This document shows, piece after piece, positions 4,338 to 53,672 of a stretch of 55,421 bases of DNA; position 1 is the first letter of the stretch, and each line of letters begins with the position of its first letter. The DNA is taken from the NCBI GenBank assembly GCA_017481235.1, contig JAFUPL010000046.1, forward strand, positions 1 through 55,421. The letters run 5' to 3'. The DNA comes from Clostridia bacterium. GTDB lineage: Bacteria > Bacillota > Clostridia > Christensenellales > UBA1242. A model generated the notes under the pieces. That model did no database searches and was not told the origin of the DNA. It saw only the letters and a program-made list of their open reading frames with translations. The translations under genes were made by a program, and so were the position numbers.

Positions 4338-4429
4338 AACATTTCTCCTTTGATACTAAATATTATATCACACAATTAAAAAAGTTGTATACTATTTTAT
4401 TAAAATAAAAAAATTAAGTTTTATAAACC

Positions 4430-9166: not shown

Positions 9167-9252
9167 GCCGATGTGGCGAAATGGCAGACGCACAAGACTC
9201 AAAATCTTGCGAGGGCAACCTCATGTCGGTTCGACCCCGACCATCGGCACCA
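9167..9252 (+). tRNA. tRNA-Leu (anticodon CAA), class II with long variable arm, CCA encoded
   Basis: Acceptor GCCGATG/CATCGGC. Anticodon stem CAAGA/TCTTG with loop CTCAAAA. T arm has GGTTCGA. Ends in CCA. Confidence 0.9.
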
Positions 9253-10730: not shown

Positions 10731-10750
10731 ACTCAAAAAAGTAAACCACT

Positions 10751-12261: not shown

Positions 12262-13113
12262 TTAATTTGCCATACAATTTATCCTATTTACAAAATCTTC
12301 AAAATTTTTATACAATATACAATCTATAATATCTTTGTTATATCCTAAATATTTTAGTTGTTTTACAAAATTATTTAAATCATTATATCCTTTAATATCA
12401 AGAGGCAAGTTATCATAATCAATTCCATGCAAATCCGTTCCAAGTCCAAAATTTTTGTAACCAAAATTTTTAATCAAATAGTCAAATTGATACGCCAAAT
12501 CTTTACTTGTAATTTTGTTTTTAGATATAAACTGATCGTACATAGTAATCCCCAAATATCCATCAGTTTTAACAATTTGCTTAATTTGTTTATCGGTTAA
12601 GTTTCGATTATGATGTTTTAAATTATATATGTTGCTATGTGAATTATATATTGGAAGTTTGCTTAGTTTGCAAAAATCCCAAAACGACGATTGCGATAGG
12701 TGTGCAGTATCTACTAAAATATTGTTTTCTTCCAAAAGTTTTACATATTTTTTGCCCAAATTAGATAGTCCTAAATCAGTATACGAACCTCCAGCGAATT
12801 GATTGGCATAGTTCCATGTTAGAGTAACACTAATAGGTCTTAACGCTATAAGTTTATCAAACTCATCATTACTTTTTATAAATCCAATATCTTCAATAGA
12901 TAGCAATAAGTTGATATTATATTTTTTACCAAAACTATCTAATTCATTTAAATATTGTGATATCCTATCAATTGAAAATCCTTTATTGGTTGTAAACACC
13001 GCACAACTAATATTTTTAGCACCATACTCTTTTATTTGTTTGATGTAATTTTGTCTATCACTACTATATTTAATACTTGTTAAAAAGTCAGTATGACTAT
13101 CACTTATTTTCAT
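12262..13113 (-). CDS. membrane-dipeptidase family (peptidase M19) protein
   Basis: DSHTDFL near the N-terminus, TLTWNYANQFAGG, VDTAHLS, NSHSN, and GTDLHG near the C-terminus. I chose the ATG at 13113 (MKISDSHTDFL) over the track's TTG at 13140. Confidence 0.7.
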   Translation of the reverse strand: MKISDSHTDFLTSIKYSSDRQNYIKQIKEYGAKNISCAVFTTNKGFSIDRISQYLNELDSFGKKYNINLLLSIEDIGFIKSNDEFDKLIALRPISVTLTWNYANQFAGGSYTDLGLSNLGKKYVKLLEENNILVDTAHLSQSSFWDFCKLSKLPIYNSHSNIYNLKHHNRNLTDKQIKQIVKTDGYLGITMYDQFISKNKITSKDLAYQFDYLIKNFGYKNFGLGTDLHGIDYDNLPLDIKGYNDLNNFVKQLKYLGYNKDIIDCILYKNFEDFVNRINCMAN

Positions 13114-13146
13114 ATTGCTAAATATGAATAAATTTGCCAATATGTG

Positions 13147-13178
13147 TAAAAAAAATAAGTCGCGTTTAACGACTTATT
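13147..13178 (-). terminator. intrinsic terminator directly after the tRNA-Leu 3' fragment
   Basis: Minus strand reads ATAAGTCG-ttaaacg-CGACTTAT followed by TTTTTTTT. Confidence 0.75.
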
Positions 13179-13185
13179 ATAACTT

Positions 13186-13251
13186 TGGTGCGGATAACAG
13201 GATTTGAACCTGCAAGAATGTTACTTCACAAGATCCTTAGTCTTGCGCGTC
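13186..13251 (-). pseudogene. truncated tRNA-Leu copy (3' 66 nt: anticodon arm, variable arm, T arm, acceptor 3' strand, CCA)
   Basis: 65 of 66 nt are identical to 13412-13477. The match ends inside the D stem, and no matching 5' acceptor or D arm follows. Confidence 0.8.
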
Positions 13252-13411: not shown

Positions 13412-13498
13412 TGGTGCGGATAACAGGATTTGAACCTGCAAGAATGTTAATTCACAAGATCCTTAGTCTTGCGCGTCTGCCAATTCCGCCATATCCGC
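13412..13498 (-). tRNA. tRNA-Leu, anticodon read by hand as AAG (class II, CCA encoded)
   Basis: Minus strand reads GCGGATATGGCGGAATTGGCAGACGCG-CAAGA-CTAAGGA-TCTTG-...GGTTCAAATCC...TATCCGCACCA. The anticodon loop C-U-A-A-G-G-A gives A34 A35 G36 with G37. Confidence 0.8.
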
Positions 13499-22600: not shown

Positions 22601-24888
22601 TTGCCCAATATGATTACGTTTTCATACCCAGTGTAGTTGGAACTATCAAAATCAAATGGATAATTGTTTATGTACTTAAGACCTTCGCCATAGTTTGAAT
22701 ACTTTGCAAAACCAATATTTACATTTTGAATAGATATATTTAAACCAATTACTTCAAGTTCGTCAGCAGTAAGAATAGTTCCATTTAAACCCAACACATC
22801 ATATATACGTATACCATAAAAAGTTTGATTATTATCAAGCATATTAGGTTGGAAATAAAATTGCCAATCATTTCCCGCATCAGTTGGAACTTCTGACACT
22901 TCGCCATTGTTGGTAGTTATCATAATAGGTTCATATGATATGCTTTCAACCGTTCTTTGACGTTCAAAACTTAAATTATAAGTTATACAAGTTTTGTCAA
23001 AACCATGATTTTTAATATTATAACTTTGGTCATACACATTTTTAATCACTATACCAAAATTACCTATTTCCTTAGTGCCGGTAGTTTTAAGCCATTTCAT
23101 ATATATGGTATCTTGGATTTTTAAGCGCTCAGACACAAAATTGTCGCCATCTACGGTAAACGTAATTTCTCTACCGTCTTTTAGTATTGCTATTTGATAA
23201 TTACCTTTTTCAAGTCCAGTTAAATCAGCGTCACTACCATTACTAGTTTTAATATAATCGCTTCTTGTATTATCAATTTGATAATATTTGCCCGAAACGA
23301 AGTTTGGACACTCATTATCGTAAACTTGTACATACTCTTTACTTGTGTTGTTATACGTATAGTAAGATTTCCAATTGTCACTCCAATCATTTGGTTGACT
23401 ATCTAATCGAGTATAATTAAATTTAATGCGTAATAGATGCTTATTAATTGTGATTGTATAATACTTAAGCGCACTTAGTGTATTGGTGCTAAGTATATCA
23501 AATTTAAATGCTTGTCCTAACGAATTTGAATCATTTAAAGCAGTTGTACTTTTAAATGTATAATCATCTTCCTCTTCCTTTTCAACTTCAATCTTTTGAC
23601 CATTATTAGTTGCTTTAAAACTGGTAGCACGCTCACCTACTGTGCAAGGAATGTTTATAGTAAATTCCTTAATATCCCCTACGCACGCTTTAGGAACAAA
23701 GTCCACTTTGATATATCCGCTACCAACACATGTACTAGTAGCAATTGCCCTTATACTACCAAAGTTTTTAGTTTCAAGTCGTAAAGCATCTATATCTGTA
23801 CTAATATTAATTTCATACAATTCGCTAAATTTTGGATTAACTTGACTTAACGACTTTAAAATAGTTGCTGGAATGCCTTCACCTTGTATATCGTTTTCAA
23901 CGCTAAGTTTAAAGTCAATCAACGCCGTACTATAATAGTCATATTCATATCTGCTTTGGTTTAACTCACGAGGTTTGTGCTCATCTGGATTGCTAATTAA
24001 AACTAAATCTTCCAATACATCATTATCATTTCCATGAGTGGTACTTGATACTACAATATCATCACTTTTCAACAAATCCGCAATACACACTTCAATTTCA
24101 ACATTATGTAAAGTTGCTTCACCTTTTAGCGCCGAAACTGGATTAATAGTTATGGTTGAGTTACGGTCATAATTACTAGCAATTTCAATCACGCTTTTTA
24201 CTGCTTCGGTAGTTCCTTTGCTTGAATCTTGAGGATTAGGAGTAAACACTGCTGTTTGGTTGTTACTTTTATCATAAGACACAACATTAATACCGCTAGG
24301 CAAATCCGTACCTTTAATTCGCCACAAAATTGTATCAGTGTAATTTTCAGGTTGACAATTTAATAATTTTTTGGTTGGAATTTCAATTCGCTTTACTACA
24401 TTACTTGCAATTTCGTCTTCGGTAAATTGTGGCGACTCAACTACAAAATCTAAGTTGGCACTTTCAACCGTTTGCAACTTACGACCAATATTCAATGGAA
24501 CACTAAAACTTTTGCCCGAACCTAAATGCGTGATTACCAAACTTGCACCTTCACCCGTTGGTTGCAAAGCCGAAACAAGAACTTCGCAATTATTTCCATC
24601 AATTATATGTTGAGTAGTAACTAATCCCGAAGGGTTGGATTCAATACTAATGTCGCCCCAAGATTTCGCACCATCTAATTCAAAATTTATAATTTGATGT
24701 GACAAACATGAACTCATCAACTCCTCGCCACCATTACATTTGCAATACGAATCCAAATCTAAAACTAGATTAATTTGTTCAACACTACATTCAATTTTTA
24801 AATCCTTATATCCGTCATTACAACTACAAAAAACAATGCTTGACACAAGCACCAAAAGCGTAGCAAATAATAATGATAATTTTTTCAT
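13672..24888 (-). CDS. giant (3738 aa) secreted or lipid-anchored surface protein with Big_2-like Ig domains and many GLUG-type repeats
   Basis: Signal peptide MKKLSLLFATLLVLVSSIVFCSC. Big_2-like segments, for example KVGEQITIDATTTSS...LLKATSAGKAKLIIVAKD. Repeated GG(L/V/I/A)IG motifs (NIGGLIGKNIG, NVGGLIGNAND, LGGVIGENQG, VGGAIGYD, AGGLVGENRG). No LPXTG motif at the C-terminus. Confidence 0.8.
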   Translation of the reverse strand: MKKLSLLFATLLVLVSSIVFCSCNDGYKDLKIECSVEQINLVLDLDSYCKCNGGEELMSSCLSHQIINFELDGAKSWGDISIESNPSGLVTTQHIIDGNNCEVLVSALQPTGEGASLVITHLGSGKSFSVPLNIGRKLQTVESANLDFVVESPQFTEDEIASNVVKRIEIPTKKLLNCQPENYTDTILWRIKGTDLPSGINVVSYDKSNNQTAVFTPNPQDSSKGTTEAVKSVIEIASNYDRNSTITINPVSALKGEATLHNVEIEVCIADLLKSDDIVVSSTTHGNDNDVLEDLVLISNPDEHKPRELNQSRYEYDYYSTALIDFKLSVENDIQGEGIPATILKSLSQVNPKFSELYEINISTDIDALRLETKNFGSIRAIATSTCVGSGYIKVDFVPKACVGDIKEFTINIPCTVGERATSFKATNNGQKIEVEKEEEDDYTFKSTTALNDSNSLGQAFKFDILSTNTLSALKYYTITINKHLLRIKFNYTRLDSQPNDWSDNWKSYYTYNNTSKEYVQVYDNECPNFVSGKYYQIDNTRSDYIKTSNGSDADLTGLEKGNYQIAILKDGREITFTVDGDNFVSERLKIQDTIYMKWLKTTGTKEIGNFGIVIKNVYDQSYNIKNHGFDKTCITYNLSFERQRTVESISYEPIMITTNNGEVSEVPTDAGNDWQFYFQPNMLDNNQTFYGIRIYDVLGLNGTILTADELEVIGLNISIQNVNIGFAKYSNYGEGLKYINNYPFDFDSSNYTGYENVIILGKTGDIQCGDYFIDISQGAEDGKPRTISTIGVKVYKQLQGNDVSVTISAPDFSGERLLYEYQPLNTQPNDWGTTTYYECIGGQYIKVKSSDEFNPNKLYYTKVDIDDLDINNTYILSTSNQYKVNIDISNSDFVNTSGQEVTAVMVNNPTKTSNKSYANYLPSKDADGNDIIRTSSIGSFDVETNTKNYVAITYTIKANTYSYYKLNKGESVEIPKTIYIYVYEPLTSATFDSTMLYKYNYHSIPNSNLKEEYGQQTLNIQLNNNSETILDYVDIKWIASGTGIGDGICDYTVSSNNASAEFTFGNRKTLNGILAGRIIATINQFGVQYPIYCNYEVSEPILSERVVLNTHINTFSSGNGYINLKVGEQITIDATTTSSKGKVSFSGVEYIVCSTSGYQINSIATIDDNGLLKATSAGKAKLIIVAKDQLNASLLTITNYFNTMLYIQNNSSYIMVDIIVSDGSIASPYLIASGSDFEKISNDVDTDGEITKHYALVNDIDLNGKAISFDKFSGTISSFKERENSDNRFSIYGIMLNESNPALFKVLNANDDGLAVLENIDFHIDINYVSTKTNKDIDDDLIDILIGLVGKNSALIKDITITISGKVNANNHVNNYIIGSMVALNIGDGTIDMSKLTKQVGVQGDIYVTNSNASTVVLGGVIGENQGKLIGANIPSSIVSGDDDVNKVEYDVYYDKQGATADIVLQVENVNNLDNSLDNSAIGGVIGKNVGSIDETTKQLNGTMINVYSTGKILGHNSANVLTVNNIGGLIGKNIGVENTNVITTSRSDPNSSHNAVDTITIEKSIKYQVTNSYSNAQVIGNNNVGGAIGYDIDGTYEKVYYEIYQVQQSIKGNDNVGGLIGNANDTTLNYCYANSFAWNYQPSVQVYDIEAINNVGGLIGLGTSSRSSYFEKQKDTDPTLSVVNSVASVSLTGSNNVSGIIGRLECFGAIYTAYFYGVIDANISSNNLDSITKMYAKDGKLIFNIPYNNIYAIVNGEGKIGINTSSYGQILNNDDGYYQGTTISSNTPVNGFNVNSQYNNSKPYVVYKDGTSLVSVIPTVIQINQAFTRSAMYRPNKLGDYVKVDENYVKYDPSIHNINQDRYSLLANLELTGDSSSSLSDYRQHALILYYYPLSDMTGEFAVSDYNYLNIVDMKDIVSSEGIIVLPNTYKRFNLRSSNAGVASVLSNGRLLLNGEGQTTITLMSTLNPSATASFVVIVRSQVLNFKLYSNANLRDEYNITNDTTISVVKNSSKIIYADYSSIIYGEHSREYKYKSATNMLIEFKIDYSGKETILPIDIAKYVALNQDYYIRLDAHGNIIDAKDTTTIVDKYLYRIPYGIPITITVNQYVDGKFEITATPYVVAGYKNGNYSKDILVKLSNFETSFNVVTKKGASAVNVNKNQLDMMPADKESRLNVKVTTDVQVDKLYISREAVGEIYQNPNNGNDLINTLDVSLYYIDNNTTIVKELVYDNDSKEYYFDISGIDIYNMLQTATIVLKLNDQSYYIDVAYRLQLDLYVYNGSNKISTTVFINVKPQAISSVISLNYRMEDKQNDINKIKLDNAYQSKIIRPGETNIIAIDIAPNIAIYDHIKIMDITSEDKILFQQVKLLDDGRFVLLDNMDIWADNGIKLIKHDVNASTLYVVAKLPSKSMANITHTIHIVVYDKAGNELNSSYLNLEAVMYPKIEMTYTYPNGKTVVADTSDGVAPQTAEKTVDLALGVEAGIDIKTDNTDEGSLSNYITVTNGLNDVTSIYGDFVRLEEVYGKYILTFDLSKQSRWDELLGKQINVNFTASKSLNGITETCRATIKFNIRRFVVHGVSMYQTSSQGKVYGNWDEAFNTYFYFDKTDISYYYKGYWNVAYTLEKTNPDNYEGALRTDMEYINNILKAFNTLGSDGVNIFFVNNNVTDISKLSPLTNNGYEDDTISIVNENYRFTIKAKQPLDDNSININDMKFIVQFKFKYEYEFYPVLTTNEVEVLTQQFGFDVTTKTTPFIEYEVINSQQEFENMVEGRYYQIVDSLTFIDYTPINTAIGGFKGNGNTITIKNFNIAQLEIDYISGGMYIGLFGILAENSVIENLQVEYRDVNNRDEIVEVNLNDSLSIQQQHTNDIYFGGIAGQNLGVITNVKVYGAFTLKAQYISAQYIDLGGITAINGSQDSKEVATITGSSVELKMSAMALIGGVSGTNYGKITNTNFKGSIKSNDSNQYVAEITTAGFVVQNLNGAYISLSYVQCGIKVGSYNIHSVGRTAGFVLNNAGTITNCYINQTSLSSQGNIGGFVYQSTGNISNSYAYATLGSSLFYNGFIYVTNTIGTITNCYVITDNDININVSGLTLVMPSELALQSKYYGFIFANGEYGVWSISNNGPQLLNSGFNPNKNEYENICNIYDVETFENFFDLNTNLATNTIEGKTFRLVRDIDFEAEGKYTNPTTFNKILKASFEGNDMVLKNYNIYKTEDVESVGLFSNIGNLGLGVYVRNLILQPSSIKASGSNAVGALAGVIDSANIYNITIDNNNLLILGKNAVGGLVGIAKGSFEIMGITSNVSAFATYAYNQTTQYNLYMGKNVSGNTLLDNLDEVSYAGSFAGIVDGYNMTKLVRDINYYYTVSNINIDNDLVIIGETVGGAFGLVGERTLVKDVNYNLSDETVYQGVYVAGGLVGENRGIIQSSKIYAYTYVEGVKQRVNTTNCFNNSARVNGGIVGFNIGGLIDNCSSDIDVVSNQALATIGGIVGRNIEGSVYNCSVAGSVEGFFVGGIVGTDYKYSTIIKQQNSYGVATLNTLNVYKNIKNGAVYESNCFVNEPSHSAETLYSNNTLETSFINKFIVKRSSYYSFNTSYMENVDNGLVNATAIYGLVLGLSDSTFVSTIGGIGVEVDDGNQNYIYQGKLIITLKRGLDSSEREGYTLIDGSKQQQIKPINKMNIIANNFEYDNLKAIFLYIIAYDKSQYDDWSSTFGYTQEYIVFSKNGLDVWEEQS

Positions 24889-30155: not shown

Positions 30156-32771
30156 TTAGTCAACTTTGTACCAATACACATCTGCGGTTAGCAATGCCGT
30201 TGCATTGGCACTACTTATGTCAGTTGTAAGTCCTTCAACTTCCGCACCATTGGTGTATCCATTCCAATCAGTTTCACTAGCAACCGTAAACCATGTGCTA
30301 GTATCTCCAAATTTAGCATTAACAAGTCCACTACCGCTAAATACATTTGTACCCATTTGAGTTACGCTTGCTGGGATAGTTACACTGGTTAAACTATAAC
30401 AATTATAAAAAGCACCATTTCTTATTGTTGTTAAACCGTTTGGCAAAGTTATACTTGCCAAACTTTTGCAATAATTAAATACATATGTTCTAATTATTTT
30501 TAATGTTGTTGGTAATTTTATATTTGATAAATTCGTACAACTACCAAACATATAATCATTTAAATATTCTAAACTTGTACCACTTAAATCAATACTTACA
30601 AGACCACATCCATTAAATACGCTGCCACCAGTATGTGTTAATTGTGAACATCTACTCATATCAACATTTATTAGATTAGTACAAGTATGGAATGCCGACC
30701 CAGCAATATAAGTCAAACTACTAGGCAATATAACACTAGTAAGTTGTGTACAACTATGGAATGCACCTGTACTTATATTTGTTAAACTTGTACAAGCACT
30801 TAAATCAACACTTGTTAATGACGCAAAGTCCTTAAATGCATTTTCGCCAATATTTTGCAATCCAAGTGGGAACTTAATACTTTCCAATGTTGTAGGGAAA
30901 ATTCCCGAAGGAATAGTAGTAATACTTGTATCGGTTAAATCAATTTCCTTTAAACTACTATAACTTGTAAACGCACCATCACTAATAGTAGTTAAAGTTT
31001 GAGGCAACTTAATACTTTGCAAACCAGTAGCACCCAAATCACCAATAGTAGCAATCTTAGTCCCACTCAAATCAATGTTGGTTAAACCAGGTATATAAAA
31101 AGCGTTAAATTCAATTGTAGTTAAATTTGTATATTTACTTAAATCTAAATTAAATAAGTTTGTACCAGAAAATGCAAAAGTTCCTATAGTTATTATATTT
31201 TTAGGTAAAATAATATTTGATAATTTAGCACAACCTTCAAAAGTATAAGTTTTTATTTGGGTTAAATTATCACAACTATTTAAGTTTATGCTGGTTAATT
31301 CCATACAACCTGAAAAGGCGTATTCCCCAATATTATTCACAGTAGATGGAATTATCACACTAATCAAACTAGAACAACCTGAAAAGGCATTATTTCCTAT
31401 CTCAGTTAAGTTTGCACACTTACTTAAATCAATATTTTTTAAGAACATACAATTAGAAAAAGCATAATCACCTATAGTTGTTACATTGTTCAAATTTGAT
31501 ATATTGGTTAAACTTGAACAACCCATAAATGCATTGTCGTCTATAGTTGTAACACTATATGGAAGAAGTACAGTAGTTAAACTTGTACAACCCATAAATA
31601 TTGAATCGCCAACAGTTTGCAACTTTAAACAATTACTTAAATCAATTTCTAACAATCCTTCACATTCATGGAACGCATATGTTGAAATTGTAGTTAAATT
31701 TTTACAATTACTTAAATCCAAACTAGTCAAATTATAATTTCTCATAAACGCATTAGCATTTATAGTTGTTAAATCTACACAACTTGAAACATCAACATTT
31801 GTAAGGGTATTGCCAAAAAATGCACTTTCACCTATTGTTGTAATAGTTGAAGGCAAATTCACACTAGTAAGACCCCCACTTATAAAAGCTTGATTTCCAA
31901 TACCAGTAACTGGCGCTTCGCCATTTGTGCCATCATCATATATTGTTGGTATTACTAAATCGGCAATGCCAGGATCATCTGTTACACTATAACTTCCATT
32001 GCTATAGGTCATACAACTGGTTGAATTTAGTGGGAAGTTATGGAAACGGGCAAATAGTGGTTCGCCTTGGGTTTCGCGTGGAAAGGTAGCAAGTTTAGTA
32101 AAGTTTTCGTCCAAGAACCATGCGTCAAAGTTGTAGCCTGTAGGCGCGGTTGGTGTTGCTGGTTCTGGCAAATCTTGACCTTTAACAATAGTTTCGGTTG
32201 TGGTTACGCCATTGACGGTGTAACTAATTGTGCCCGCATTACCAAAGTTCCAAGAAATAGTTGTAGTAAAGTTAAGTGGAAGAGTTGCATCACTTGGAGA
32301 TACAAGCACGTAAATATAAATATCCGCGTCCTTAGTGTCGATAGTTTGAGCCTCAAACTTAGTTTGCGAAGTTGTTGTGCTATCAAAAGTTAGCGGAGTG
32401 CTTGAATACACATAACTAATATCAACACCTTCAATTTCTTGCATTGATTGCAAGGTTACCGCCATAGTTTGTTCTACGTTGCTAGGTCTACCAAATATAT
32501 ATTCATACGCCTTAACTGTAGCGGTATTCTCCGTAGCCATAGAACTTGGCATATAGTTAAAATCAATTGTTGTTTGATTTGTTCCAACCAATTCGATTTG
32601 ACCCGCTTGATAGGTGTAAGTGGTAGGTTTTTGCACATTTCCCTTATCCAATGCTGGAGTTGTAGGAGTTGAATTATCTGTTTTTTGAATGCAAATAATA
32701 CCTGTAACAAGCGCAACAAGCATTGCTACAAATACACTTACACTTAATATGATTTTCTTTTTTATACCCAT
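30156..32771 (-). CDS. BspA-type leucine-rich-repeat surface protein, paralog 1 (871 aa)
   Basis: N-terminal signal-anchor helix and a beta-rich domain. PTAPTGYNFDAWFLDENFTKLATFP is a Listeria-Bacteroides/InlB B-repeat-like segment. Then many repeats of the type IG..AF..C..LTSI.LP.S(L/V)T.I. Confidence 0.8.
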   Translation of the reverse strand: MGIKKKIILSVSVFVAMLVALVTGIICIQKTDNSTPTTPALDKGNVQKPTTYTYQAGQIELVGTNQTTIDFNYMPSSMATENTATVKAYEYIFGRPSNVEQTMAVTLQSMQEIEGVDISYVYSSTPLTFDSTTTSQTKFEAQTIDTKDADIYIYVLVSPSDATLPLNFTTTISWNFGNAGTISYTVNGVTTTETIVKGQDLPEPATPTAPTGYNFDAWFLDENFTKLATFPRETQGEPLFARFHNFPLNSTSCMTYSNGSYSVTDDPGIADLVIPTIYDDGTNGEAPVTGIGNQAFISGGLTSVNLPSTITTIGESAFFGNTLTNVDVSSCVDLTTINANAFMRNYNLTSLDLSNCKNLTTISTYAFHECEGLLEIDLSNCLKLQTVGDSIFMGCTSLTTVLLPYSVTTIDDNAFMGCSSLTNISNLNNVTTIGDYAFSNCMFLKNIDLSKCANLTEIGNNAFSGCSSLISVIIPSTVNNIGEYAFSGCMELTSINLNSCDNLTQIKTYTFEGCAKLSNIILPKNIITIGTFAFSGTNLFNLDLSKYTNLTTIEFNAFYIPGLTNIDLSGTKIATIGDLGATGLQSIKLPQTLTTISDGAFTSYSSLKEIDLTDTSITTIPSGIFPTTLESIKFPLGLQNIGENAFKDFASLTSVDLSACTSLTNISTGAFHSCTQLTSVILPSSLTYIAGSAFHTCTNLINVDMSRCSQLTHTGGSVFNGCGLVSIDLSGTSLEYLNDYMFGSCTNLSNIKLPTTLKIIRTYVFNYCKSLASITLPNGLTTIRNGAFYNCYSLTSVTIPASVTQMGTNVFSGSGLVNAKFGDTSTWFTVASETDWNGYTNGAEVEGLTTDISSANATALLTADVYWYKVD

Positions 32772-32824: not shown

Positions 32825-32853
32825 ATTTTAACAATTTCCTTTATAAAAGTCAA
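32825..32853 (-). promoter_or_regulatory. conserved extended -10 promoter of LRR gene 1
   Basis: Minus strand reads TTGACT (32853-32848), 17-nt spacer ending in TGT, then TAAAAT (32830-32825). The same layout occurs at 39629-39657 and 52673-52701. Confidence 0.6.
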
Positions 32854-32974: not shown

Positions 32975-33042
32975 GGCGAAGCGCGCAACCACGTTGCACA
33001 AAATGCGAATGCATTTCAAGAAACTATTGTTTCTGCTTCGCC
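32975..33042. other. 68-nt four-way-junction (mini-cloverleaf) element, copy A
   Basis: Closing stem GGCGAAGC/GCTTCGCC (32975-32982 with 33035-33042). Hairpins GCAAC-cac-GTTGC (32985-32997), AAATGC-gaat-GCATTT (33001-33016) and AGAAAC-tatt-GTTTCT (33019-33034). Confidence 0.7.
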
Positions 33043-35600: not shown

Positions 35601-38600
35601 TCATGGTAATGTTGTATAAACATTATCTGCATAATATGATACATAAGTACGTCCACTATCAAGGATTCCAGCAACAAAACTGAAATTTGATAAATTATAT
35701 ACTGTTTTTAAATTTGTACATCCATAGAAAGCATAATCCGATATTTTTGTTACATTGGATGGGATTGTTATACTTGTTAAACTACTACATCCCCAAAAAG
35801 CATTCTTCCCTATCGTTGTTAAATTATTACATTTGCTTAAATCTACACTTGTTAAATTGATACATTGGTAGAATGTATAATTTCCTATCATTGTTGTTCT
35901 ACTATCTAGGGTGATACTTGTTTTAGTTTTATCACTTAAACGTAGCGCTATATAATCTGTTTCACTATTTTTATAATAATCTACTCCATCTATGGTTACT
36001 AACTTACTTTCATCTCTTGGTCCATTTACTACTATAGCGGCATAATATGCTACATATCCATTTAAGGAACTTCCCGCTTTTATATTCAAACTGGATAAAT
36101 TATATATCTCTACCAAATTATTACATTTGTCAAACGCCTGACTATCTATTGTTGTTAAACTTGAAGGTAGGGTTATGCTGTTTAAATTATAACATTGATA
36201 GAAAGAACATTTATCTATTGTAACTAAATTTGCACAATTACTTAAGTCAATGTTTATTAATTTAGTATAATTATAAAATGCGTATTTATTAATTGATATT
36301 GTTCTATCATTTAATGTAACATGTGTTTTAGTTATATCTACTAATCCGATTGCTATATAACTACTATCACTCTCCTTATAATACCTTACTCCATCTATTG
36401 TTGTAAATTTACTTTCTTCTAAACTAGTATACACTTGTAAGGCATAACAACCAACATATCCATTATCTTCACTTCCTTGAGTTATAGTTAAATTTGATAA
36501 GTTAAATACTTCTGCTAATGCATAACAATATTGGAAAGCATTATTCCCTATACTTATTATACTGCTTGGAATTGTTATACTTGTCAAACTGTAACATTGA
36601 TTAAATGTATTACTTTCTATAGTTGTTATTCCTTCTGGAATTGTTATACGTTTTAATGTTTGACAATTTTTAAACGCACCCGCTCCGATACTTGTTACAC
36701 TTGATGGTATATTTACACTGATTAAATTATGACAACTAGCGAAAGTAGAGGCTCCTATTGTTTTTAAACTTGTACAATTTGTTAAATTTACATATGCTAA
36801 GTTGTCACAATATGAAAAACACTCTCTCTCAATTGTTGTTAAATTTATACAATTACTCAAATCCACATTAATCAAACTTGTACAACCACTAAAAGTATTT
36901 TCATCTATAATATTCAAATTTTTACAACCACTCATATTTACACTTATTAATGCGCTGCAATCGCTGAATAAATATCTTCCTGTTATAGTCAAATTTGCAC
37001 AACTGCTAATGTCTATACTTTTTAAAATTTGATTTTTGTGAAAAGCATAATTTCTTATTAAAGTTGTTCTACTATCTAGGGTGATTCTTGTTTTTGTATT
37101 ATCACTTAAACGTAGGAATCTATAATCTGTATCACTATATTTATAATAATCTACTCCTTCTATGGTTACTAACTTACTTTCATCTCTTTCATGTTTTGCT
37201 ACCACTCCAGCATAATATGCCAAATATGAATTCCTTGTATCTTGTTCTCCTTGCTCAAAAGATATACTAGATAAATTATATACCTCTGCCAAATTATAAC
37301 AACAATGAAAAGCACCCATACCTACGCTAGTTACATTTTCTGGAATTGTTATATTTGTTATATTGCCACATTGATAGAAAGCATTACTTCCTATTGTTGT
37401 TAAACTATTTGGCAAAGTTATAGTTGATAAAGCACTACAATATTGGAAAGTATATGTTCCTGTGTTTGTAATAGTATTTGGAAGTTGGGCATTGGTTAGA
37501 CCTGAGCAATAACTAAATAAGTAACCAGGTAGTGTGGTTATGCTGGTACATTTGCTTAAGTCAGCCTTAATTAAACTTGCATTGTTAGCAAAGGCATAAG
37601 GACCAAGGGCTGTTATTGAACTTGGTAATACAACATTGGTGATTGTGGTGTATCTAAATGCTTGGTTACCAATTGTGGTTAAACTGGTGCATTTGCTCAA
37701 ATCTCCAACTGACGATAGTTTTGCGTAAGAGAAAGCATTGATACCAATACTAATTAGGTCAGTACATTTACTTAAATCACCTACTGAGGTTAGTTGTGTG
37801 CAATTATAGAATGCATATTTACCTATTGAAGTAACTTTGGTTGGGATAATAGTTTTAATTAAACTTGAACATTTATTAAATGCATAGTCGCCTAATGTGG
37901 TAAGTTCGTTAGGCAATACTAGATAGGTAAGACTGGTACAACTATCAAAAGCATTTGCGCCAATAGTGGTTACATTTTTAGGAATATTAATGCTATACAA
38001 ACTGCTACAATTACGGAATGCACTTGCTCCTATACTTGTTAAACTAGCACAACCATTTAAATTAATATCTTCAAGCGCCACGCAATTGTAAAACGCATTT
38101 GCCCCAATACTATCAATCCCGTAAGGCATTGTAATACCCGTCAAACTGCTACAACCATAAAACGCACTATCTCCAATACTGGTTATACCACTATGTAAAC
38201 CAACCTCTTGCAAATTTTCACAACCATAAAACGCACGACCTCCAATACTGGTCAAGTTTTTACAATTACTTAAATCAATACTAATTAAATTATTACAATT
38301 AGAGAAAGCATCATTTCCAATAGTTTCCACACTACTAGGAATGGTTATACTTGTAAAAATATCACAAGCAGCGAAAGCAGAATCTCCTATCGTTGTTAGA
38401 TTAGTACAACTAGTTAGGTCTATACTTGTTAAACCACACCAATCGAATGCATAATCTCCTATTGTTGTTAGATTAGTACAACTAGTTAGGTCTACACTTG
38501 TTAAACTAGAATTATCGAAAGCATAATCTCCTATTGTTGTTATAGTGCATGGCATTGACACACTAGTTATGTCACACCCCGTCGTCATATCATCACTAAA

Positions 38601-39542
38601 TGCATAAATTCCTATACTTGTTACCCTTGCTTCACCATTAATTCCATCGTTATATATGGTTGGGATTACAATATTAGTGATACCAGTATCATAAACATAA
38701 TCATATCCACTACCACACCAATTTTCATCAAAATAATCATCATTACTAAATACATATTCGCCATCAACATAATGGATATATTTAGTGGTATTTGGGGTTA
38801 TATTATGAAAACGAGCATAAAGGTTGCGGTTGCTTTGTAGTGGGAATGTGGCAAGTTGAGTAAAGTTTTCGTCCAAGAACCATGCGTCAAAGTAGTATCC
38901 GTCTGGCGCGGTTGGAGTGGCGGGTTGTTGCATTTCTAGACCATCAACAAATGTTTGAGTGGTTGTTGTGTTGTTGACATTGTTTTTAATCTCAATAGTT
39001 TTTGCTACGCCATAATTCCACACAACGCTTGTACTAAATGTAACTGGAACGGTTGCGTCGGTTGGGGTAACCAATATGTAAATATATTTATTGCTACCCT
39101 TGGTGTTGATTGTTTGGATAGTATAATCGGTTTGACCTGTAATGGTGGTAGATGTATCCAACGGAGTATCACTATAGGTGTAACTAACATTTACGCCCGT
39201 AGTGTCAATACTTTTTAACTTAACCGCCATAGCAACGTCCATAGTATTACCAAATATATATTGATATGCGATAGTGGTGGCGGTGGTATCCTCGGTAGCA
39301 TTTGCACCTGGAACATAATTATAATTAATTACATCATCACCATTTTTAACCACTACTTCACCTGGAAGATATGTGTATGTGGTAGGTTTTTCATTATCAA
39401 TATCAACCACTTGACCCTTATTGGTTGGAATTTGTGGTGGAATTGAATGGTCCTTATTAATATTGATTAATCCAATAGCAAAAGCAACAAGCATTGCAAA
39501 TGCTACGCTTACACCTAATATTATTTTTTTTCTTATACTCAT
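35601..39542 (-). CDS. BspA-type leucine-rich-repeat surface protein, paralog 2 (about 1313 aa)
   Basis: Same architecture as paralog 1. I placed the start at MSIRKKIILGVSV (ATG 39542) because AAGGGGA lies 6 nt upstream, as in the other paralogs; the track ORF merely extends in-frame to 39638. It contains three full copies of an approximately 85-aa module (..EVYNLS...ESK(L/F).TI(D/E)GV.YYK...TK..ITLD.RT) and a truncated fourth copy at the C-terminus. Confidence 0.8.
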   Translation of the reverse strand: MSIRKKIILGVSVAFAMLVAFAIGLININKDHSIPPQIPTNKGQVVDIDNEKPTTYTYLPGEVVVKNGDDVINYNYVPGANATEDTTATTIAYQYIFGNTMDVAMAVKLKSIDTTGVNVSYTYSDTPLDTSTTITGQTDYTIQTINTKGSNKYIYILVTPTDATVPVTFSTSVVWNYGVAKTIEIKNNVNNTTTTQTFVDGLEMQQPATPTAPDGYYFDAWFLDENFTQLATFPLQSNRNLYARFHNITPNTTKYIHYVDGEYVFSNDDYFDENWCGSGYDYVYDTGITNIVIPTIYNDGINGEARVTSIGIYAFSDDMTTGCDITSVSMPCTITTIGDYAFDNSSLTSVDLTSCTNLTTIGDYAFDWCGLTSIDLTSCTNLTTIGDSAFAACDIFTSITIPSSVETIGNDAFSNCNNLISIDLSNCKNLTSIGGRAFYGCENLQEVGLHSGITSIGDSAFYGCSSLTGITMPYGIDSIGANAFYNCVALEDINLNGCASLTSIGASAFRNCSSLYSINIPKNVTTIGANAFDSCTSLTYLVLPNELTTLGDYAFNKCSSLIKTIIPTKVTSIGKYAFYNCTQLTSVGDLSKCTDLISIGINAFSYAKLSSVGDLSKCTSLTTIGNQAFRYTTITNVVLPSSITALGPYAFANNASLIKADLSKCTSITTLPGYLFSYCSGLTNAQLPNTITNTGTYTFQYCSALSTITLPNSLTTIGSNAFYQCGNITNITIPENVTSVGMGAFHCCYNLAEVYNLSSISFEQGEQDTRNSYLAYYAGVVAKHERDESKLVTIEGVDYYKYSDTDYRFLRLSDNTKTRITLDSRTTLIRNYAFHKNQILKSIDISSCANLTITGRYLFSDCSALISVNMSGCKNLNIIDENTFSGCTSLINVDLSNCINLTTIERECFSYCDNLAYVNLTNCTSLKTIGASTFASCHNLISVNIPSSVTSIGAGAFKNCQTLKRITIPEGITTIESNTFNQCYSLTSITIPSSIISIGNNAFQYCYALAEVFNLSNLTITQGSEDNGYVGCYALQVYTSLEESKFTTIDGVRYYKESDSSYIAIGLVDITKTHVTLNDRTISINKYAFYNYTKLINIDLSNCANLVTIDKCSFYQCYNLNSITLPSSLTTIDSQAFDKCNNLVEIYNLSSLNIKAGSSLNGYVAYYAAIVVNGPRDESKLVTIDGVDYYKNSETDYIALRLSDKTKTSITLDSRTTMIGNYTFYQCINLTSVDLSKCNNLTTIGKNAFWGCSSLTSITIPSNVTKISDYAFYGCTNLKTVYNLSNFSFVAGILDSGRTYVSYYADNVYTTLP

Positions 39543-39628
39543 ACTCATTCCCCTTTTTACCGCTATTTGTAAAATTATGGATTCCAACTTTAGTTGGATT
39601 TGCTCGACTATAATAATTTGATACATTA

Positions 39629-39657
39629 ATTTTAACAATTTGAATATGATTTGTCAA
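39629..39657 (-). promoter_or_regulatory. conserved extended -10 promoter of LRR gene 2
   Basis: Minus strand reads TTGACA, 17-nt spacer ending in TGT, then TAAAAT. Confidence 0.6.
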
Positions 39658-49745: not shown

Positions 49746-52628
49746 TTATTTTTTGTACCAATATTTACTATAATAACTAGACTTAAACATCAAATAATGA
49801 TTAGTTCCAGCAGTTATTGTAACAGGGTGACCTCCACTCATTGCTTCTTGTTGTGATTCAGAGCACTGATACCATGTTCCACTAGTTTCAAATTTTAATG
49901 AACTTAAACCGCTTTGATAAAATGAGTATTGCCCTATTTTTATTACATTACTTGGAATAACTATACTTGTTATAATTTTATCATAATAAAAAGCATAACT
50001 GTTTATCGATGTTGTTCTGCTATCTAGTGTAATACTTGTTTTAGTTCTATCTGCTAAGTATGCTGCTATATAACTATTATCACTTTCCTTATAATATCTT
50101 ACTCCATCTATTGTGGTAAATTTACATTCCTCTAAACTCGTATATATTTGTAAGGCGCTACTTACTGTTACGGTTAAACTTGATAAATTACATACTTCTA
50201 CCAATGAATGACAATTACTGAAATTACCACTTCCTATCTTGGTTACTTTAGATGGAATTGTTATACTACTTAACGCAGCACAAGATGAAAAAGCATTATT
50301 GCCTATAGATGTTAAACTTATACAATCATTTAAATTTATACTCCTCAACCGCCCGCAATCGGAAAAAACATAATTCCCTATACTTGTTATACTATGTGGC
50401 AAAATTACACTTTCTAAACTACTACATTTATAAAATTCATTATCTTCTAATGTTGTTAACTTAGTACAATGACTTAGGTCTATACTTGTTAATTCACTAC
50501 TCGTAAAAGTTTTATTTAACAAAGTTAAATTTATACAATTGCTTAAATCTACACTTTTTAATTTCACACTATCGTAAAAAACAGACATTCCCATTTGTGT
50601 AACACTTGCCGGAATAGTTATACTTGTTAATCCACTTTCATAAAAAGCATAATTACCTATAATCTCTATATCATTTGGTATTATTGTTGTATTACTACCT
50701 TGTATCAACGTATTTGTTGAACTTTCAATTATTGCATTACAATTGTTTCTGCTATCATACACATTATTGTTTTCATCTACTACTACATTTGTTAATGCAT
50801 AACAAGAAGAAAATGCATGGGATCCTATTGTTGTTACTCTTGCTGGAATTACAATGTTTGTAATCTTATCACAATCATTAAAAGCACTTTGTCCAATTGA
50901 AATTAAATTTGTACACTTACTTAAATCTATATTTGTTAACTTTTGACACTTAGAGAAAGCACTAGTTTCAATTGCAGTTAAATTCATGCAATTAGTTAAT
51001 TCTACACTTATTAAATAATCACAATCATAGAAAGCGCTATTTCCTATTGTAGTTAAATTTGTACATTTGCTTAAGTCGATACTTGTTAAACAATCAATAT
51101 CACGAAATGCATAATTTCTTATCAATGTTGTTCTACTATCTAAAGTAATACTTATTTTAGTTGCATCACTTAAACGTAGCGCTATATAATCTGTTTCACT
51201 ATTCTTATAATAATCTACTCCATCTATTGTTACTAACTTACTTTCATCTCTTGCTTCGTTTTTTACAATTGCCGCATAAAATGCCACATAACCATAACCC
51301 ATACTTCCAGTTGTTATGCTTAAATTTGATAAATTATACACCTCTGCTAAATTATAACAATTATTGAACGCCCAAGAATCAATGTGTGTCACACTTGCTG
51401 GAATTGTTATATTTGTTAAACCTCCACAATTAGAGAAAGCAGAGTTAATTGTTGTTAAATTTTGACAAATAGTTAAGTCTATATTAAGTAAAGCGTTACA
51501 GTTACTAAAAGCATATGTTTCTAAACTTTGAATACTAATTGGGAGTTTAACATTTGTTAAACCTTTACATTCATAAAATGAATATTTGGGTATAGTTATT
51601 AAACTTGTGCATTTGCTTAAGTCTACACTTTCCAGATTATCACCACATCTAAAAAATGCATAATCACCTATAGTGGTCAAACTTGAAGGAAGAGTTACAC
51701 TCGTTAAACCTGTTTGATTATAAAACACTCCGTTTGCTTGGGACGTTGCTGTGGCAATTTCGGTTACTGGTTTGCCATTATACTTTGATGGGATTACTAG
51801 ATTGCTTGGTAGAGTTGATGGATTTGATGCGGGTTTAGTTATATGATATGTATCACTTTCCTCATCTAGTGTTAACCAATCTGTTGGTAGGTTTGAAAAT
51901 TGGGCATACAGTTGTTGGTTTGGTTTTACTTCACCTTCGACCCTTTTAGTATATTCCTTATCCAAATACCAACCCTCAAACATTATATCTTGCATTTCAA
52001 TTTCTGGCACATCTAAAGTATTTTCATCTATACTTTGTCCATTTACTATTGTTTGGGTTGTTGTTGTATTATTGATATTGTTGCTAACAACTATTTCCTT
52101 AGGTTTACCTAAGTACCACACAACGCTTGATGTAAATGTTGTTGGGATTTCTTGATTTGTTGGGGTTACAAGTATGTAGATATATTTTTTAGCATTTTTT
52201 ATTTTAAGTTCTTGCAATGTAAATTTAGTTTCGCCTGTAATTTCACCAGTTGTATCAAGCGGGGTGTCGCTATATGCATAACTAACTGTTACATTTGTTG
52301 TATCAATTGATTTAAGGTTGACAACCGTTGTTTCGTCCATTACACCTTTAAATACATATTCATAAGCGGTTGTAGTTGGAGTATCACCACTATTAACACT
52401 TGGGAAATATTGATATTGTAAGTTGTCTCCACCTTTTTGAATTTTTACTTCACCTGGTTTATATGTAATGGTTGAGTTATTTTTATTTACATTTGTAACT
52501 TGTTGATTTGAAGATGAAGGCGTACTATTTCTATTATTGGAATTAAGTATTACAATCCCTACTAGCAAAGTCACCAACATGACAATACAAATACTTGTGC
52601 TTAACACAATCTTTTTTAATCTAGTCAT
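49746..52628 (-). CDS. BspA-type leucine-rich-repeat surface protein, paralog 3 (960 aa)
   Basis: Same N-terminal anchor, beta domain and B-repeat-like segment (MFEGWYLDKEYTKRV), then LRRs. Two copies of the approximately 85-aa module are shared with paralog 2. The C-terminal domain is shared with paralog 1 (..WY..SE.....YWYK). Confidence 0.8.
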   Translation of the reverse strand: MTRLKKIVLSTSICIVMLVTLLVGIVILNSNNRNSTPSSSNQQVTNVNKNNSTITYKPGEVKIQKGGDNLQYQYFPSVNSGDTPTTTAYEYVFKGVMDETTVVNLKSIDTTNVTVSYAYSDTPLDTTGEITGETKFTLQELKIKNAKKYIYILVTPTNQEIPTTFTSSVVWYLGKPKEIVVSNNINNTTTTQTIVNGQSIDENTLDVPEIEMQDIMFEGWYLDKEYTKRVEGEVKPNQQLYAQFSNLPTDWLTLDEESDTYHITKPASNPSTLPSNLVIPSKYNGKPVTEIATATSQANGVFYNQTGLTSVTLPSSLTTIGDYAFFRCGDNLESVDLSKCTSLITIPKYSFYECKGLTNVKLPISIQSLETYAFSNCNALLNIDLTICQNLTTINSAFSNCGGLTNITIPASVTHIDSWAFNNCYNLAEVYNLSNLSITTGSMGYGYVAFYAAIVKNEARDESKLVTIDGVDYYKNSETDYIALRLSDATKISITLDSRTTLIRNYAFRDIDCLTSIDLSKCTNLTTIGNSAFYDCDYLISVELTNCMNLTAIETSAFSKCQKLTNIDLSKCTNLISIGQSAFNDCDKITNIVIPARVTTIGSHAFSSCYALTNVVVDENNNVYDSRNNCNAIIESSTNTLIQGSNTTIIPNDIEIIGNYAFYESGLTSITIPASVTQMGMSVFYDSVKLKSVDLSNCINLTLLNKTFTSSELTSIDLSHCTKLTTLEDNEFYKCSSLESVILPHSITSIGNYVFSDCGRLRSINLNDCISLTSIGNNAFSSCAALSSITIPSKVTKIGSGNFSNCHSLVEVCNLSSLTVTVSSALQIYTSLEECKFTTIDGVRYYKESDNSYIAAYLADRTKTSITLDSRTTSINSYAFYYDKIITSIVIPSNVIKIGQYSFYQSGLSSLKFETSGTWYQCSESQQEAMSGGHPVTITAGTNHYLMFKSSYYSKYWYKK

Positions 52629-52672: not shown

Positions 52673-52701
52673 ATTTTAACAATTTACTTTTTATTTGTCA
52701 A
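52673..52701 (-). promoter_or_regulatory. conserved extended -10 promoter of LRR gene 3
   Basis: Minus strand reads TTGACA, 17-nt spacer ending in TGT, then TAAAAT. Confidence 0.6.
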
Positions 52702-52737
52702 AGAATTTACAATATGTTTATATATTTTTTGTAAATT

Positions 52738-52744
52738 TGTCGAA
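52738..52744 (+). promoter_or_regulatory. perfect Spo0A-box heptamer TGTCGAA, 36 nt upstream of the LRR-3 -35 element
   Basis: AAATTTGTCGAAATTTATTT is identical over 20 nt to the LRR-2 box region at 39690-39709. Confidence 0.45.
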
Positions 52745-52759
52745 ATTTATTTATAAAAC

Positions 52760-52837
52760 GGCGCGAATTGCACGCATTATGCGTGCGGATTGCAAAAGCA
52801 ATCCCCAAATTTTGCAATACAAAATTTAATTCGCGCC
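52760..52837. other. 78-nt perfect four-way-junction (mini-cloverleaf) element, copy B
   Basis: Closing stem GGCGCGAATT/AATTCGCGCC (10 bp). Hairpins GCACGCA-tta-TGCGTGC, GGATTGC-aaaa-GCAATCC and AAATTTTG-caata-CAAAATTT. All 32 pairs are Watson-Crick. Confidence 0.75.
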
Positions 52838-52872
52838 CCATATTTCACCCTCAAACTTAACTTTTCAACTAT

Positions 52873-52900
52873 AAAAAAAACTAAGCAAGTGCTTAGTTTT
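52873..52900 (-). terminator. intrinsic terminator of sigG (overlaps the stop codon)
   Basis: Minus strand reads AAAACTAAG-cacttg-CTTAGTTTT followed by TTTT. Confidence 0.75.
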
Positions 52901-53672
52901 ATGACATATATCGTTTAATTTGCTCTAATGCATTTTTTTCTAACCTACTTACTTGTGCTTGCGATATACCTATTTCATTGCTAACTTCCATTTGAGTTTT
53001 GCCCGCAAAATACCTTAGGTCAAGTATTTGTTTTTCCCTTGCATCAAGGTTTCTAACCGCGTCTTTCAGGTCCACATTTTGCAACCACTTGTCACTATTT
53101 TGACTTTCGTCCGCAAGGTGTTCTAGTAGCAACACTTGGTCGTCATCATCATTGTACATTGCCTCGTCAAGCGACAATGGCGCACTTATTGCATCAATTG
53201 CGTCTACCACCTCAAACAATGTAAGGTTTAAATCACTTGCAATTTCCTCCAAACTAACCTCGTCCGAACGGTCTTTGCTAAGTCGTTCCTTGCTTTTTAG
53301 CACCAAATATGCTGTATCACGCAAACTTCTGCTTACTCGCATACTACTACTATCCCTTAAAAATCGCTTAATTTCGCCCACTATCATAGGCACGGCATAG
53401 GTGCTAAATCTCACATTTAGCGTAAGGTCAAAGTTGTCAATTGCCTTCATAAGTCCCACACAACCCACTTGGAAAATATCGTCCATACTTTCCTTTGTAT
53501 CGCAAAACCGTTGTGCAACCGACAACACCAATCTCATATTGCAATAAATAAAATGCTCTTTTGCTTGCTCACAACCGTCTTTAATTTGATGTAAAATGCT
53601 AACTGTTTCGTCATTTGTAAGTCTAGGAATATTTGAAGTATTAATGTTACAAATATAAACTTTTCTTGACAT
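52899..53672 (-). CDS. sigG: sporulation sigma factor SigG
   Basis: NMRLVLSVAQRF, DDIFQVGCVGLMKAIDNFD, VRFSTYAVPMIVGEIKRFLRD and VSRSLRDTAY are SigG-like. I chose the ATG at 53672 (MSRKV) with AGGAG 6 nt upstream; the track start at 53678 is a TTG. Confidence 0.85.
   Translation of the reverse strand: MSRKVYICNINTSNIPRLTNDETVSILHQIKDGCEQAKEHFIYCNMRLVLSVAQRFCDTKESMDDIFQVGCVGLMKAIDNFDLTLNVRFSTYAVPMIVGEIKRFLRDSSSMRVSRSLRDTAYLVLKSKERLSKDRSDEVSLEEIASDLNLTLFEVVDAIDAISAPLSLDEAMYNDDDDQVLLLEHLADESQNSDKWLQNVDLKDAVRNLDAREKQILDLRYFAGKTQMEVSNEIGISQAQVSRLEKNALEQIKRYMS

Follow-up and report, generated by a model that had tools for sequence, protein, structure and literature searches.

What is the compact palindromic structure that lies between a sporulation sigma-factor gene and a leucine-rich-repeat (LRR) protein gene in the genome of an uncultured clostridium, and does it have anything to do with either gene? 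The window analysed here is the whole 55,421-nucleotide contig JAFUPL010000046.1 of a Clostridia bacterium (assembly GCA_017481235.1), whose host is close to 'Candidatus Onthoplasma' (Christensenellaceae; ruminant gut metagenomes), and the structure in question, element 1, occupies positions 52760-52837. A sequence-only reading had described it as a perfect 78-nt four-way junction of no recognised family and had implied a link to the promoter of the neighbouring LRR gene. Our analysis indicates that element 1 belongs to what is apparently an undescribed family of GC-rich three-hairpin palindromic modules, dispersed in the intergenic DNA of some uncultured gut Clostridia. We favour, with a probability of about 0.5, the reading that the module is a selfish or mobile structured repeat, resembling repetitive extragenic palindromes and bacterial interspersed mosaic elements (REP/BIME) or miniature inverted-repeat transposable elements (MITEs), and that it is a passenger at the sigG-LRR locus. 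Element 1 and its parts are as follows.

52760-52837, family orientation on the + strand and antisense to the flanking genes: element 1, a complete three-hairpin four-way junction, from its fold and its match to the covariance model R1 described below
52760-52769: 5' arm of the closing stem, GGCGCGAATT, carrying the family motif GGCG.GAA
52770-52786: hairpin 1, GCACGCA-tta-TGCGTGC, 7 bp with a 3-nt loop; its base GCAC...GTGC is common to copies at locus L010 and the copy at L063
52787-52804: hairpin 2, GGATTGC-aaaa-GCAATCC, 7 bp with a 4-nt loop
52807-52827: hairpin 3, AAATTTTG-caata-CAAAATTT, 8 bp with a 5-nt loop
52828-52837: 3' arm of the closing stem, AATTCGCGCC, pairing with 52760-52769 over 10 bp

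The letters, stems and loops all proved to be as first described, with 32 Watson-Crick pairs, no G-U pair and a 2-nt cc linker between hairpins 2 and 3. When both strands were folded with ViennaRNA, the junction was the minimum-free-energy and the centroid structure on each, with RNA energies of -39.6 and -42.1 kcal/mol (z -7.6 and -6.6), while the DNA fold reached -31.8 on each strand (z -8.7 and -7.8); the z values thus lie at about -7 to -9, and none of 200 shuffles folded as stably, as RNA or as DNA, on either strand. At a GC content of 0.45, the element stands out from the 120 nt on its left (0.12) and from the spacer on its right (0.28), which bears out its description as a GC-rich island. 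As both strands form the junction, the earlier remark that an RNA role and a DNA role are both left possible also holds. A junction descriptor was set to a minimum of 5 bp for each of three perfect hairpins, a maximum of 3 nt for the linkers and a minimum of 6 bp for the closing stem. It matched the window twice, at element 1 and at 32975-33042, and gave no match in 100 dinucleotide-preserving shuffles of the whole window. The match at 32975-33042, already proposed as a second copy, has the same architecture and is referred to here as element 2. The intergenic region of element 1 reads the same, base for base, in four metagenome assemblies made independently for this species, and element 1 is therefore no assembly artefact.

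The search was extended with the fold-based descriptor to 80 sigma-orthologue loci of species genomes and about 40 metagenome loci, some 1.7 Mb in all. The same architecture was found in at least six other lineages of Clostridia metagenome-assembled genomes, and it is constant among them: a closing stem and exactly three simple hairpins, joined by linkers of 0-3 nt. The members outside the window are the following.

L010, at 4357, 10905, 15914, 18107 and 20157: five copies in 20.7 kb, in both orientations
L102, L103 and L104: copies in a sister species of L010
L017 at 9791, L034 at 13198, L048 at 19930, L056 at 16669 and L063 at 1652: single copies

The other descriptor matches in the sampled loci were two tRNAs and two weak ones, and no more. 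A search of 1.69 Mb gave no good analogue with two or four hairpins, and the hairpin modules were not found occurring alone. A more tolerant descriptor, which admitted mismatches and long loops, was flooded by AT-rich low-complexity sequence and missed true members by over-extension, and was left out of the counts. The elements measure 68-112 bp, with a closing stem of 8-12 bp and loops of 3-6 nt, mostly of 3-4 nt. The elements form GC islands in the AT-rich genomes that carry them; at L010, the GC content is 35.6%, compared with 54-69% in its elements (65-69% in four of the five).

The closing helix carries a common motif, approximately GGCGRAAG...CYTTCGCC, which is recognisable in five lineages (the window, L010/L102, L017 and L056). 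It takes the form GGCGCGAA in element 1, GGCGAAGC in element 2, GGCGGAAG at L056 and GGCGAAAAG at L017, and the forms GGGGGCGGAAG, GGGGCAGAAG and GGGGGCAAAAG at L010. The first hairpin has the base GCAC...GTGC in element 1, in four of the L010 copies and at L063. In view of this common closing-helix motif and first hairpin, the family has an intrinsic orientation and some conserved sequence. Four L010 copies, which lie in both orientations, are mutually 77-83% identical by BLAST, whereas elements 1 and 2 of the window resemble each other in sequence only at the start of the closing stem. The rest of the member sequences is divergent, with compensatory changes in the stems and loops that vary freely, and most of each member is defined by structure alone.

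As an independent test of relatedness, a covariance model (R1) was built from the copies of the L010 subfamily only. With default filters, R1 matched its own subfamily only. With the filters off, its top match in the window was 52758-52839 on the + strand, with 34.4 bits and an E value of 2.7e-5, compared with 16.2 bits on the - strand of element 1. Element 2 scored 15.8 bits (E 0.31), which is on a par with a tRNA-Leu of the window (16.7 bits). On 91 kb of the other carrier loci, R1 recovered all descriptor members at 24-43 bits and otherwise gave at most 11.4 bits, and on 188 kb of the nearest relatives it gave one new, looser member only, at L017. The recovery of these members by R1 is explained by the closing-helix motif that they have in common. 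The sequence-only reading had held that a lack of further copies in relatives would tell against a function; copies do exist in other genomes.

How the family behaves in evolution can be followed best at L010. In its subfamily, 95.9% of the alignment cells are paired and six pairs are changed on both sides; none of 500 shuffles reached this covariation, and slid controls gave about 40% pairing. The genomes of L010 and of L102/L103 are about 85% identical overall, and the orthologues of the copy that follows sigG differ only in their three loops, at a single G.U pair and by a one-base linker deletion, while the spacer beside this element is scrambled between L010 and L102. The L102 orthologue of the L010 copy at 4357 has a different first hairpin, which is like that of the L010 copy at 15914, and a compensatory change from C-G to G-C in hairpin 3; the L102 contig starts within this element. 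The short contigs L105 and L108 would also end inside or next to an element, judging from its position at L102, 131 nt past the sigma stop codon. Between L034 and L048, the DNA of which is about 76% identical, the element stands at the same place, between a small conserved open reading frame (ORF) and the rpmB terminator, yet the two elements are almost wholly different in sequence except for part of one hairpin. The small ORF itself, of about 34 residues (...ICIKAPKWMRPFLKPFVKK...; L034 at about 13090-13198 and L048 at about 19800-19900), ends at or just before the element and converges on rpmB; it is shorter than the 60-residue minimum of the ORF lists for these loci.

The element is also gained or lost among close relatives. 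The sigG locus is free of it at L005-L007 (sigma 89-93% identical), at L085-L095, and at L109 and L110, the sigma factors of which are 87-89% identical to that of L010. At the site of the L010 copy at 15914, L109 is empty and two genes of a phage-like cluster overlap (...GAATTGAAGGAGAACTAATGG), whereas the filled site of L010 has a duplication of about 13 bp that includes the ribosome-binding site (RBS), with the element between diverged copies of AGTTGAA.GGAGAA; the duplication keeps both the stop codon and the RBS. The direct-repeat scores of the flanks of 12 copies averaged 1.8, barely more than the 1.2 of the controls. The positions are uniform in one respect: at each of the 11 loci a co-directional or convergent gene has the element on its 3' side, and in no case do the flanking genes diverge. 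The element starts 0-9 nt past a stop codon at L017, L034 and L063 and in the L010 copies at 15914 and 18107, and five loci (element 1 and four others) have it just past an intrinsic terminator. Elsewhere it is found after rpmB, within a terminase/portal cluster and upstream of sigG; two copies are intercistronic, and within one terminase/portal operon of L010 the copy at 15914 is sense and that at 18107 antisense. Across the members there are about five G.U and three A.C pairs, too few to choose a strand. Taken together, the GC islands, the extragenic 3' placement, the multiple copies, the gain and loss, the exchange of modules and the constraint on pairing point to a dispersed, structured, non-coding repeat.

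Several known identities were considered and set aside. The sequence-only reading had called the element tRNA-sized but not a tRNA, and this agrees with ARAGORN and the Rfam tRNA model RF00005, which call just the two tRNA-Leu genes of the window, at 9167-9252 and 13412-13498; no tRNA match at E<=10 falls in 52700-52900. Element 1 has a closing stem of 10 bp, loops of 3, 4 and 5 nt and no T-loop of the GTTCRANYC type, and the likeness of GGCG(G)AATTG to the D-arm of a window tRNA-Leu is too short to mean anything. The failure to recognise a known family was likewise confirmed, since Rfam 15 gave no match at gathering score at either window element and nothing meaningful at E<=10, the best sub-threshold match being manA-II with 19.7 bits against a cut-off of 100; the five L010 copies had no Rfam match. 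A small peptide gene is rejected because the ATG frames that run through some L010 copies are broken by indels between copies. An intrinsic terminator is not supported either: element 1 is followed by GTTTTAT only, on the - strand, and element 2 and most members have no T-run. An apparent flank motif of the window and L010 (5' GGTGA..TGGG, 3' GTTT.AT) was rejected as coincidence or promoter sequence: its upstream part is absent from L102, its downstream TTTCGAC box is also present in the element-less L109 and L110, and the two fall on opposite sides once the copies are oriented by the model.

An association with phages was also rejected, as 13 viral contigs related to the L010 portal cluster are without the element and a pattern scan of viral sequences was empty. 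Plasmid and phage records contained nothing relevant when they were searched with the elements by BLAST. When metagenomes were scanned for the pattern of the L010 hairpin pair, the only matches were unrelated REP-like soil hairpins; in these soil contigs (L096-L100), copies of a hairpin GTACGCACGCC-NNN-GGCGTGC form inverted pairs with a spacing of about 50-60 nt, with the look of REPIN-type doublets and unrelated to the present family. No description of such an element was found in the literature searched, which included the Breaker-laboratory surveys of GC-rich intergenic regions.

Does the element then serve the locus in which it was noticed? The features around the two window copies are these.

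32975-33042: element 2, closing stem GGCGAAGC of 8 bp, hairpins of 5-7, 6 and 6 bp
52899-53672, - strand: gene of a sporulation sigma factor of the SigF/SigG family (SigB/SigF/SigG family), here called sigG, adjoining spoIIGA
52877-52900, - strand: intrinsic terminator of the sigma gene, with a 10-bp stem and a T-run to about 52869; upstream of element 1 on the gene strand
52738-52744, + strand: TGTCGAA, a Spo0A-box-like heptamer, 15 nt from element 1
52673-52701, - strand: LRR promoter-like site TTGACA-17-TAAAAT with TG in front, downstream of element 1 on the gene strand
49746-52628, - strand: BspA-type LRR protein gene, 960 residues, downstream of element 1
30156-32771, - strand: paralogous BspA-type LRR gene, 871 residues, downstream of element 2, with a promoter-like site at 32825-32853

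On the gene (-) strand the order is sigma gene, terminator, a spacer of about 35 nt, element 1, the TTTCGACA box, promoter and LRR gene. The distances given earlier were accurate, the box being 15 nt away and the terminator about 31-39 nt (35 had been claimed). Since the LRR promoter lies downstream of element 1, the LRR transcript would not include the element. The two LRR proteins are 32% identical, and their genes have recognisably similar core promoters and RBSs with a common layout, namely TTGAC(A/T)-17-TAAAAT with TG, the RBS GGGGGATAA and a TTTCGACAAA box upstream. Element 2 is placed equivalently to element 1, upstream of the paralogous gene; it has one imperfect pair, a C.A when read on the + strand and a G.U when read on the - strand. 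The other LRR genes of the window, at 35601-39638 and (a presumed one) at 13672-24888, are without an element. At L006, where sigma is 90% identical, an LRR gene of the same type lies directly downstream of sigG, and there is no element.

The arrangement suggested a DNA-level site for the LRR promoter, that is, a cruciform or junction extruded by supercoiling, or a platform beside the Spo0A box, which would insulate the promoter from sigG read-through. Each window copy does stand ahead of one of the paralogous LRR promoters, with an upstream terminator on one side and the Spo0A-box-like TTTCGACAAA on the other, and the perfect Watson-Crick pairing with a DNA fold of z -8 to -9 fits such a role. 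However, the sigG-LRR arrangement of L006 does without the element, as do two of the four window LRR genes, and members elsewhere stand in unrelated and even intercistronic positions. The Spo0A-like box was tested as a part of the element and rejected, because element-less relatives have an equivalent box upstream of their gene; the box belongs to the promoter. From what is understood of cruciform extrusion, moreover, a 10-bp inverted repeat across a 58-bp spacer would be kinetically unlikely to extrude from duplex DNA. The implied link to the LRR promoter and its Spo0A box is therefore not upheld: copies in other genomes and in unrelated contexts point to a dispersed repeat family and not to a locus-specific regulator, and we consider a dedicated role at the LRR promoter quite improbable. 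A domesticated stabiliser of mRNA 3' ends, or a barrier to read-through, is somewhat less improbable but still unlikely. Its junction would block 3'-to-5' exonucleases or polymerases that escape termination, as hypothesised for REP, and this fits the position 3' of a gene at all 11 loci, several of them 0-9 nt past the stop codon; the formation of the fold on both strands also fits a stabiliser that acts in either orientation. However, element 1 and four others lie past an intrinsic terminator and would be transcribed only on read-through, and the exact count of three hairpins and the conservation of the terminal motif are left unexplained. Such a role is compatible with the mobile-repeat reading and could explain long retention. 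To a chance cluster of palindromes or an assembly artefact we give next to no weight, in view of the four identical assemblies, the absence of any junction from 100 window shuffles and the recovery of the family by R1.

A more serious competitor, which we regard as doubtful rather than remote, is that the element functions as a structured RNA. It could be a small RNA of tRNA size or act in cis in 3' untranslated or intercistronic regions; the junction would be bound or processed by a host factor, and the copies would be paralogues in the manner of genes, not selfish insertions. That there are always exactly three hairpins, that stems covary while loops are free, and that the element is retained at the orthologous L034 and L048 sites despite sequence turnover are what such an RNA would lead one to expect. 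All copies could be transcribed with, or just after, the upstream gene, two of them being intercistronic; on the - strand, a promoter-like TAGGCA-17-TATGAT stops 5 nt short of element 2, and the one imperfect pair of element 2 is a G.U pair on the gene strand. However, promoter-like matches are at chance level in such AT-rich DNA, no terminator consistently follows the element, and the orientation is mixed even within the one L010 operon. There are hardly any G-U pairs and mostly 3-4-nt loops, which is more typical of DNA palindromes, and there are no conserved unpaired nucleotides that might form a binding or catalytic core. The sporadic absence from close relatives also speaks against a cellular RNA gene.

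The reading of a selfish or mobile repeat may be put as follows. The modules would colonise the AT-rich intergenic DNA of certain Christensenellales-like Clostridia as units in which a terminal inverted repeat of 8-12 bp surrounds exactly three short, near-perfect palindromes. Each unit would spread as a non-autonomous element, perhaps recognised by a factor encoded elsewhere through its folded single strand (DNA or RNA) or through the conserved terminal helix, and the complementarity of the arms would be kept either by selection on the fold or by intrastrand templated correction. At the present locus, element 1 would be a passenger in the neutral stretch that separates the sigG terminator from the LRR promoter. 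Any effect on its neighbours would be generic and not LRR-specific; it might, for instance, hinder read-through or 3' exonucleases or absorb supercoils, as proposed for REP/BIME. Several observations weigh against this reading. No transposase, integrase or reverse transcriptase was detected when window ORFs of at least 100 residues, with the exception of the 3738-residue gene and a few overlapping or short ORFs, were compared with Pfam, so that the mobilising factor is purely inferred. Flanking direct repeats are no general feature of the copies. As the two window copies are alike only in the closing-helix motif, there has been no recent burst in this genome, and no third copy lies in the 8.7 kb to the left of the window (two copies in about 64 kb of this species). 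The retention at L034 and L048 through sequence turnover and the strict number of three hairpins fit a selected function at least as well. Finally, the orientation relative to genes is mixed, with too few G.U and A.C pairs to weigh one strand against the other, and the sample comprises only about 1.7 Mb of related sequence. We also hold, tentatively and as a possibility below the mobile-repeat reading in likelihood, that the family might represent a new class of self-propagating bacterial elements defined by structure, each a perfect four-way junction of tRNA size that acts as single-stranded DNA or RNA; alternatively, it might be an orphan family of structured RNAs that serve the cell. In the self-propagating case, a dedicated host or mobile factor would recognise the GGCGRAAG terminal helix and the GCAC hairpin, the complementarity of the arms would be actively maintained, and the family would be a bacterial counterpart of the mitochondrial GC clusters discussed below.

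Other features of these genomes were noted in passing. Large BspA-type LRR surface-protein genes with Pfam LRR_5 matches occur three times in the 55 kb (30156-32771, 35601-39638 and 49746-52628, all on the - strand), and the ORF of 3738 residues at 13672-24888 (-), which was outside the Pfam scan, is presumed to be the fourth. An ORF of 444 residues with a TTG start at 9402-10736 (-) has the Rho RNA-binding domain as its single Pfam match (E 2.5e-7), and no ATPase domain at the threshold used. At L010 (12822-20095), L085, L092 and L109, the genes downstream of sigG are those of a deacetylase and ssb and a terminase/portal cluster, perhaps from a prophage or a region like a gene-transfer agent; in the window, an LRR gene, an M14 peptidase and two Rce1-like genes occupy this place. 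The L010 lineage has a second GC-rich repeat, a terminator-like hairpin GGCGACCGC...GCGACCGCC followed by a T-run, in which a 2x2 AC/AC internal loop is conserved and the tip is variable; it lies after sigG and ssb at L010 (10778-10813 and 12517-12552) and L102 (6499-6534 and 8237-8272) and is absent from L109 and L110. A further dispersed repeat, GTCATACCGAACAC(G/A)AAGTGTGAGTGTATCTGGC, is present at L010 (12590-12700 and 20290-20474) and L102 (8291-8401), with copies up to 97% identical between distant sites. At L056, a perfect 19-nt tandem repeat, GACCGCACCAACCAAGCCC x 5.1, occupies 16768-16863, from 4 nt past the element to the end of the locus.

Confirmation of the family would add a distinctive structured repeat to the poorly known genomes of uncultured gut Christensenellales, namely a closed four-way junction with helices that remain perfect as their sequences change, and would provide a natural system for studying how palindromes spread and how the complementarity of their arms is kept up, by selection or by templated correction. 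The elements are also of practical concern, as metagenome contigs break at them (inside one at L102, and as suggested for L105 and L108) and as they could be misannotated as small RNAs or regulatory sites. For the sigG-LRR locus, the result argues against the element being part of the regulation of the LRR gene next to element 1.

How, then, does the module compare with known systems? A tRNA is also a four-helix cloverleaf of similar size with a closing stem that starts with G, and a tRNA-Leu scored weakly with R1 (16.7 bits), whereas the module has no D-loop or T-loop motifs, no 7-nt loop of the anticodon type, no consistent 3' CCA and a closing stem of 8-12 bp. Integron attC sites are defined by the core sites RYYYAAC and GTTRRRY and by extrahelical bases. 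Like the module, they keep structure and not sequence; they act as a folded single strand, and long ones can branch. Element 1, however, ends in GGCGCGAATT and AATTCGCGCC, without core sites or bulges, there is no cassette array or integrase nearby, and the host is Gram-positive. With REP/BIME the module shares much more, as both are short GC-rich extragenic palindromes, present in multiple copies and able to form their fold on either strand, and both occupy tandem or convergent spacers, on the 3' side of genes. REP palindromes bear a GTAG or CGTC tag at one end, and roles in mRNA stabilisation, termination and supercoiling have been hypothesised for them (PMC3733652). The module, in contrast, is a closed composite of three distinct palindromes within a conserved terminal inverted repeat and not a single hairpin or a loose mosaic; its arms, such as GCACGCA, GGATTGC and AAATTTTG and those of the other members, have no GTAG or CGTC tag, and its hairpins are not found alone and are almost wholly different between the copies of this genome. 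Its copy number is two dissimilar copies in about 64 kb in this species and five in 20.7 kb, four of them similar, at L010, and no RAYT gene is known for its hosts (about 64 kb of this genome covered).

MITEs likewise have terminal inverted repeats, are small, non-coding and intergenic, form families within a genome, as at L010, and show insertion polymorphism, and one filled site with a duplication can be set against an empty one. The terminal inverted repeat of the module is its closing stem of 8-12 bp, with GGCG(R)AA(R)G in the window copies, L010, L017 and L056. However, 68-112 bp is the very small end of the MITE range, the interior consists wholly of nested perfect palindromes, there is no consistent target-site duplication and no parent insertion sequence was identified whose ends match. 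With no REP tag, no lone hairpins, an inconsistent duplication and no known parent of this kind, the family is not filed under any named one. Outside bacteria, the GC clusters of yeast mitochondrial genomes, such as GC42, are GC-rich palindromic islands in AT-rich intergenic DNA that are sporadic among close strains, with substitutions biased to the loop, a constrained hairpin, units that merge and shuffle into multi-hairpin forms and an unknown mobilising mechanism (PMC4478555). The module is also a GC island, sporadic, drifting in its loops and exchanging its modules, but in bacterial chromosomes rather than eukaryotic organelle genomes, with inconsistent flanking repeats instead of short defined target duplications (AG or TAG), and a fixed four-way junction with a conserved terminal helix is peculiar to it. 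By analogy, REP/BIME and MITEs are the closest bacterial counterparts of the module, and the yeast mitochondrial GC cluster is the closest to it in behaviour.

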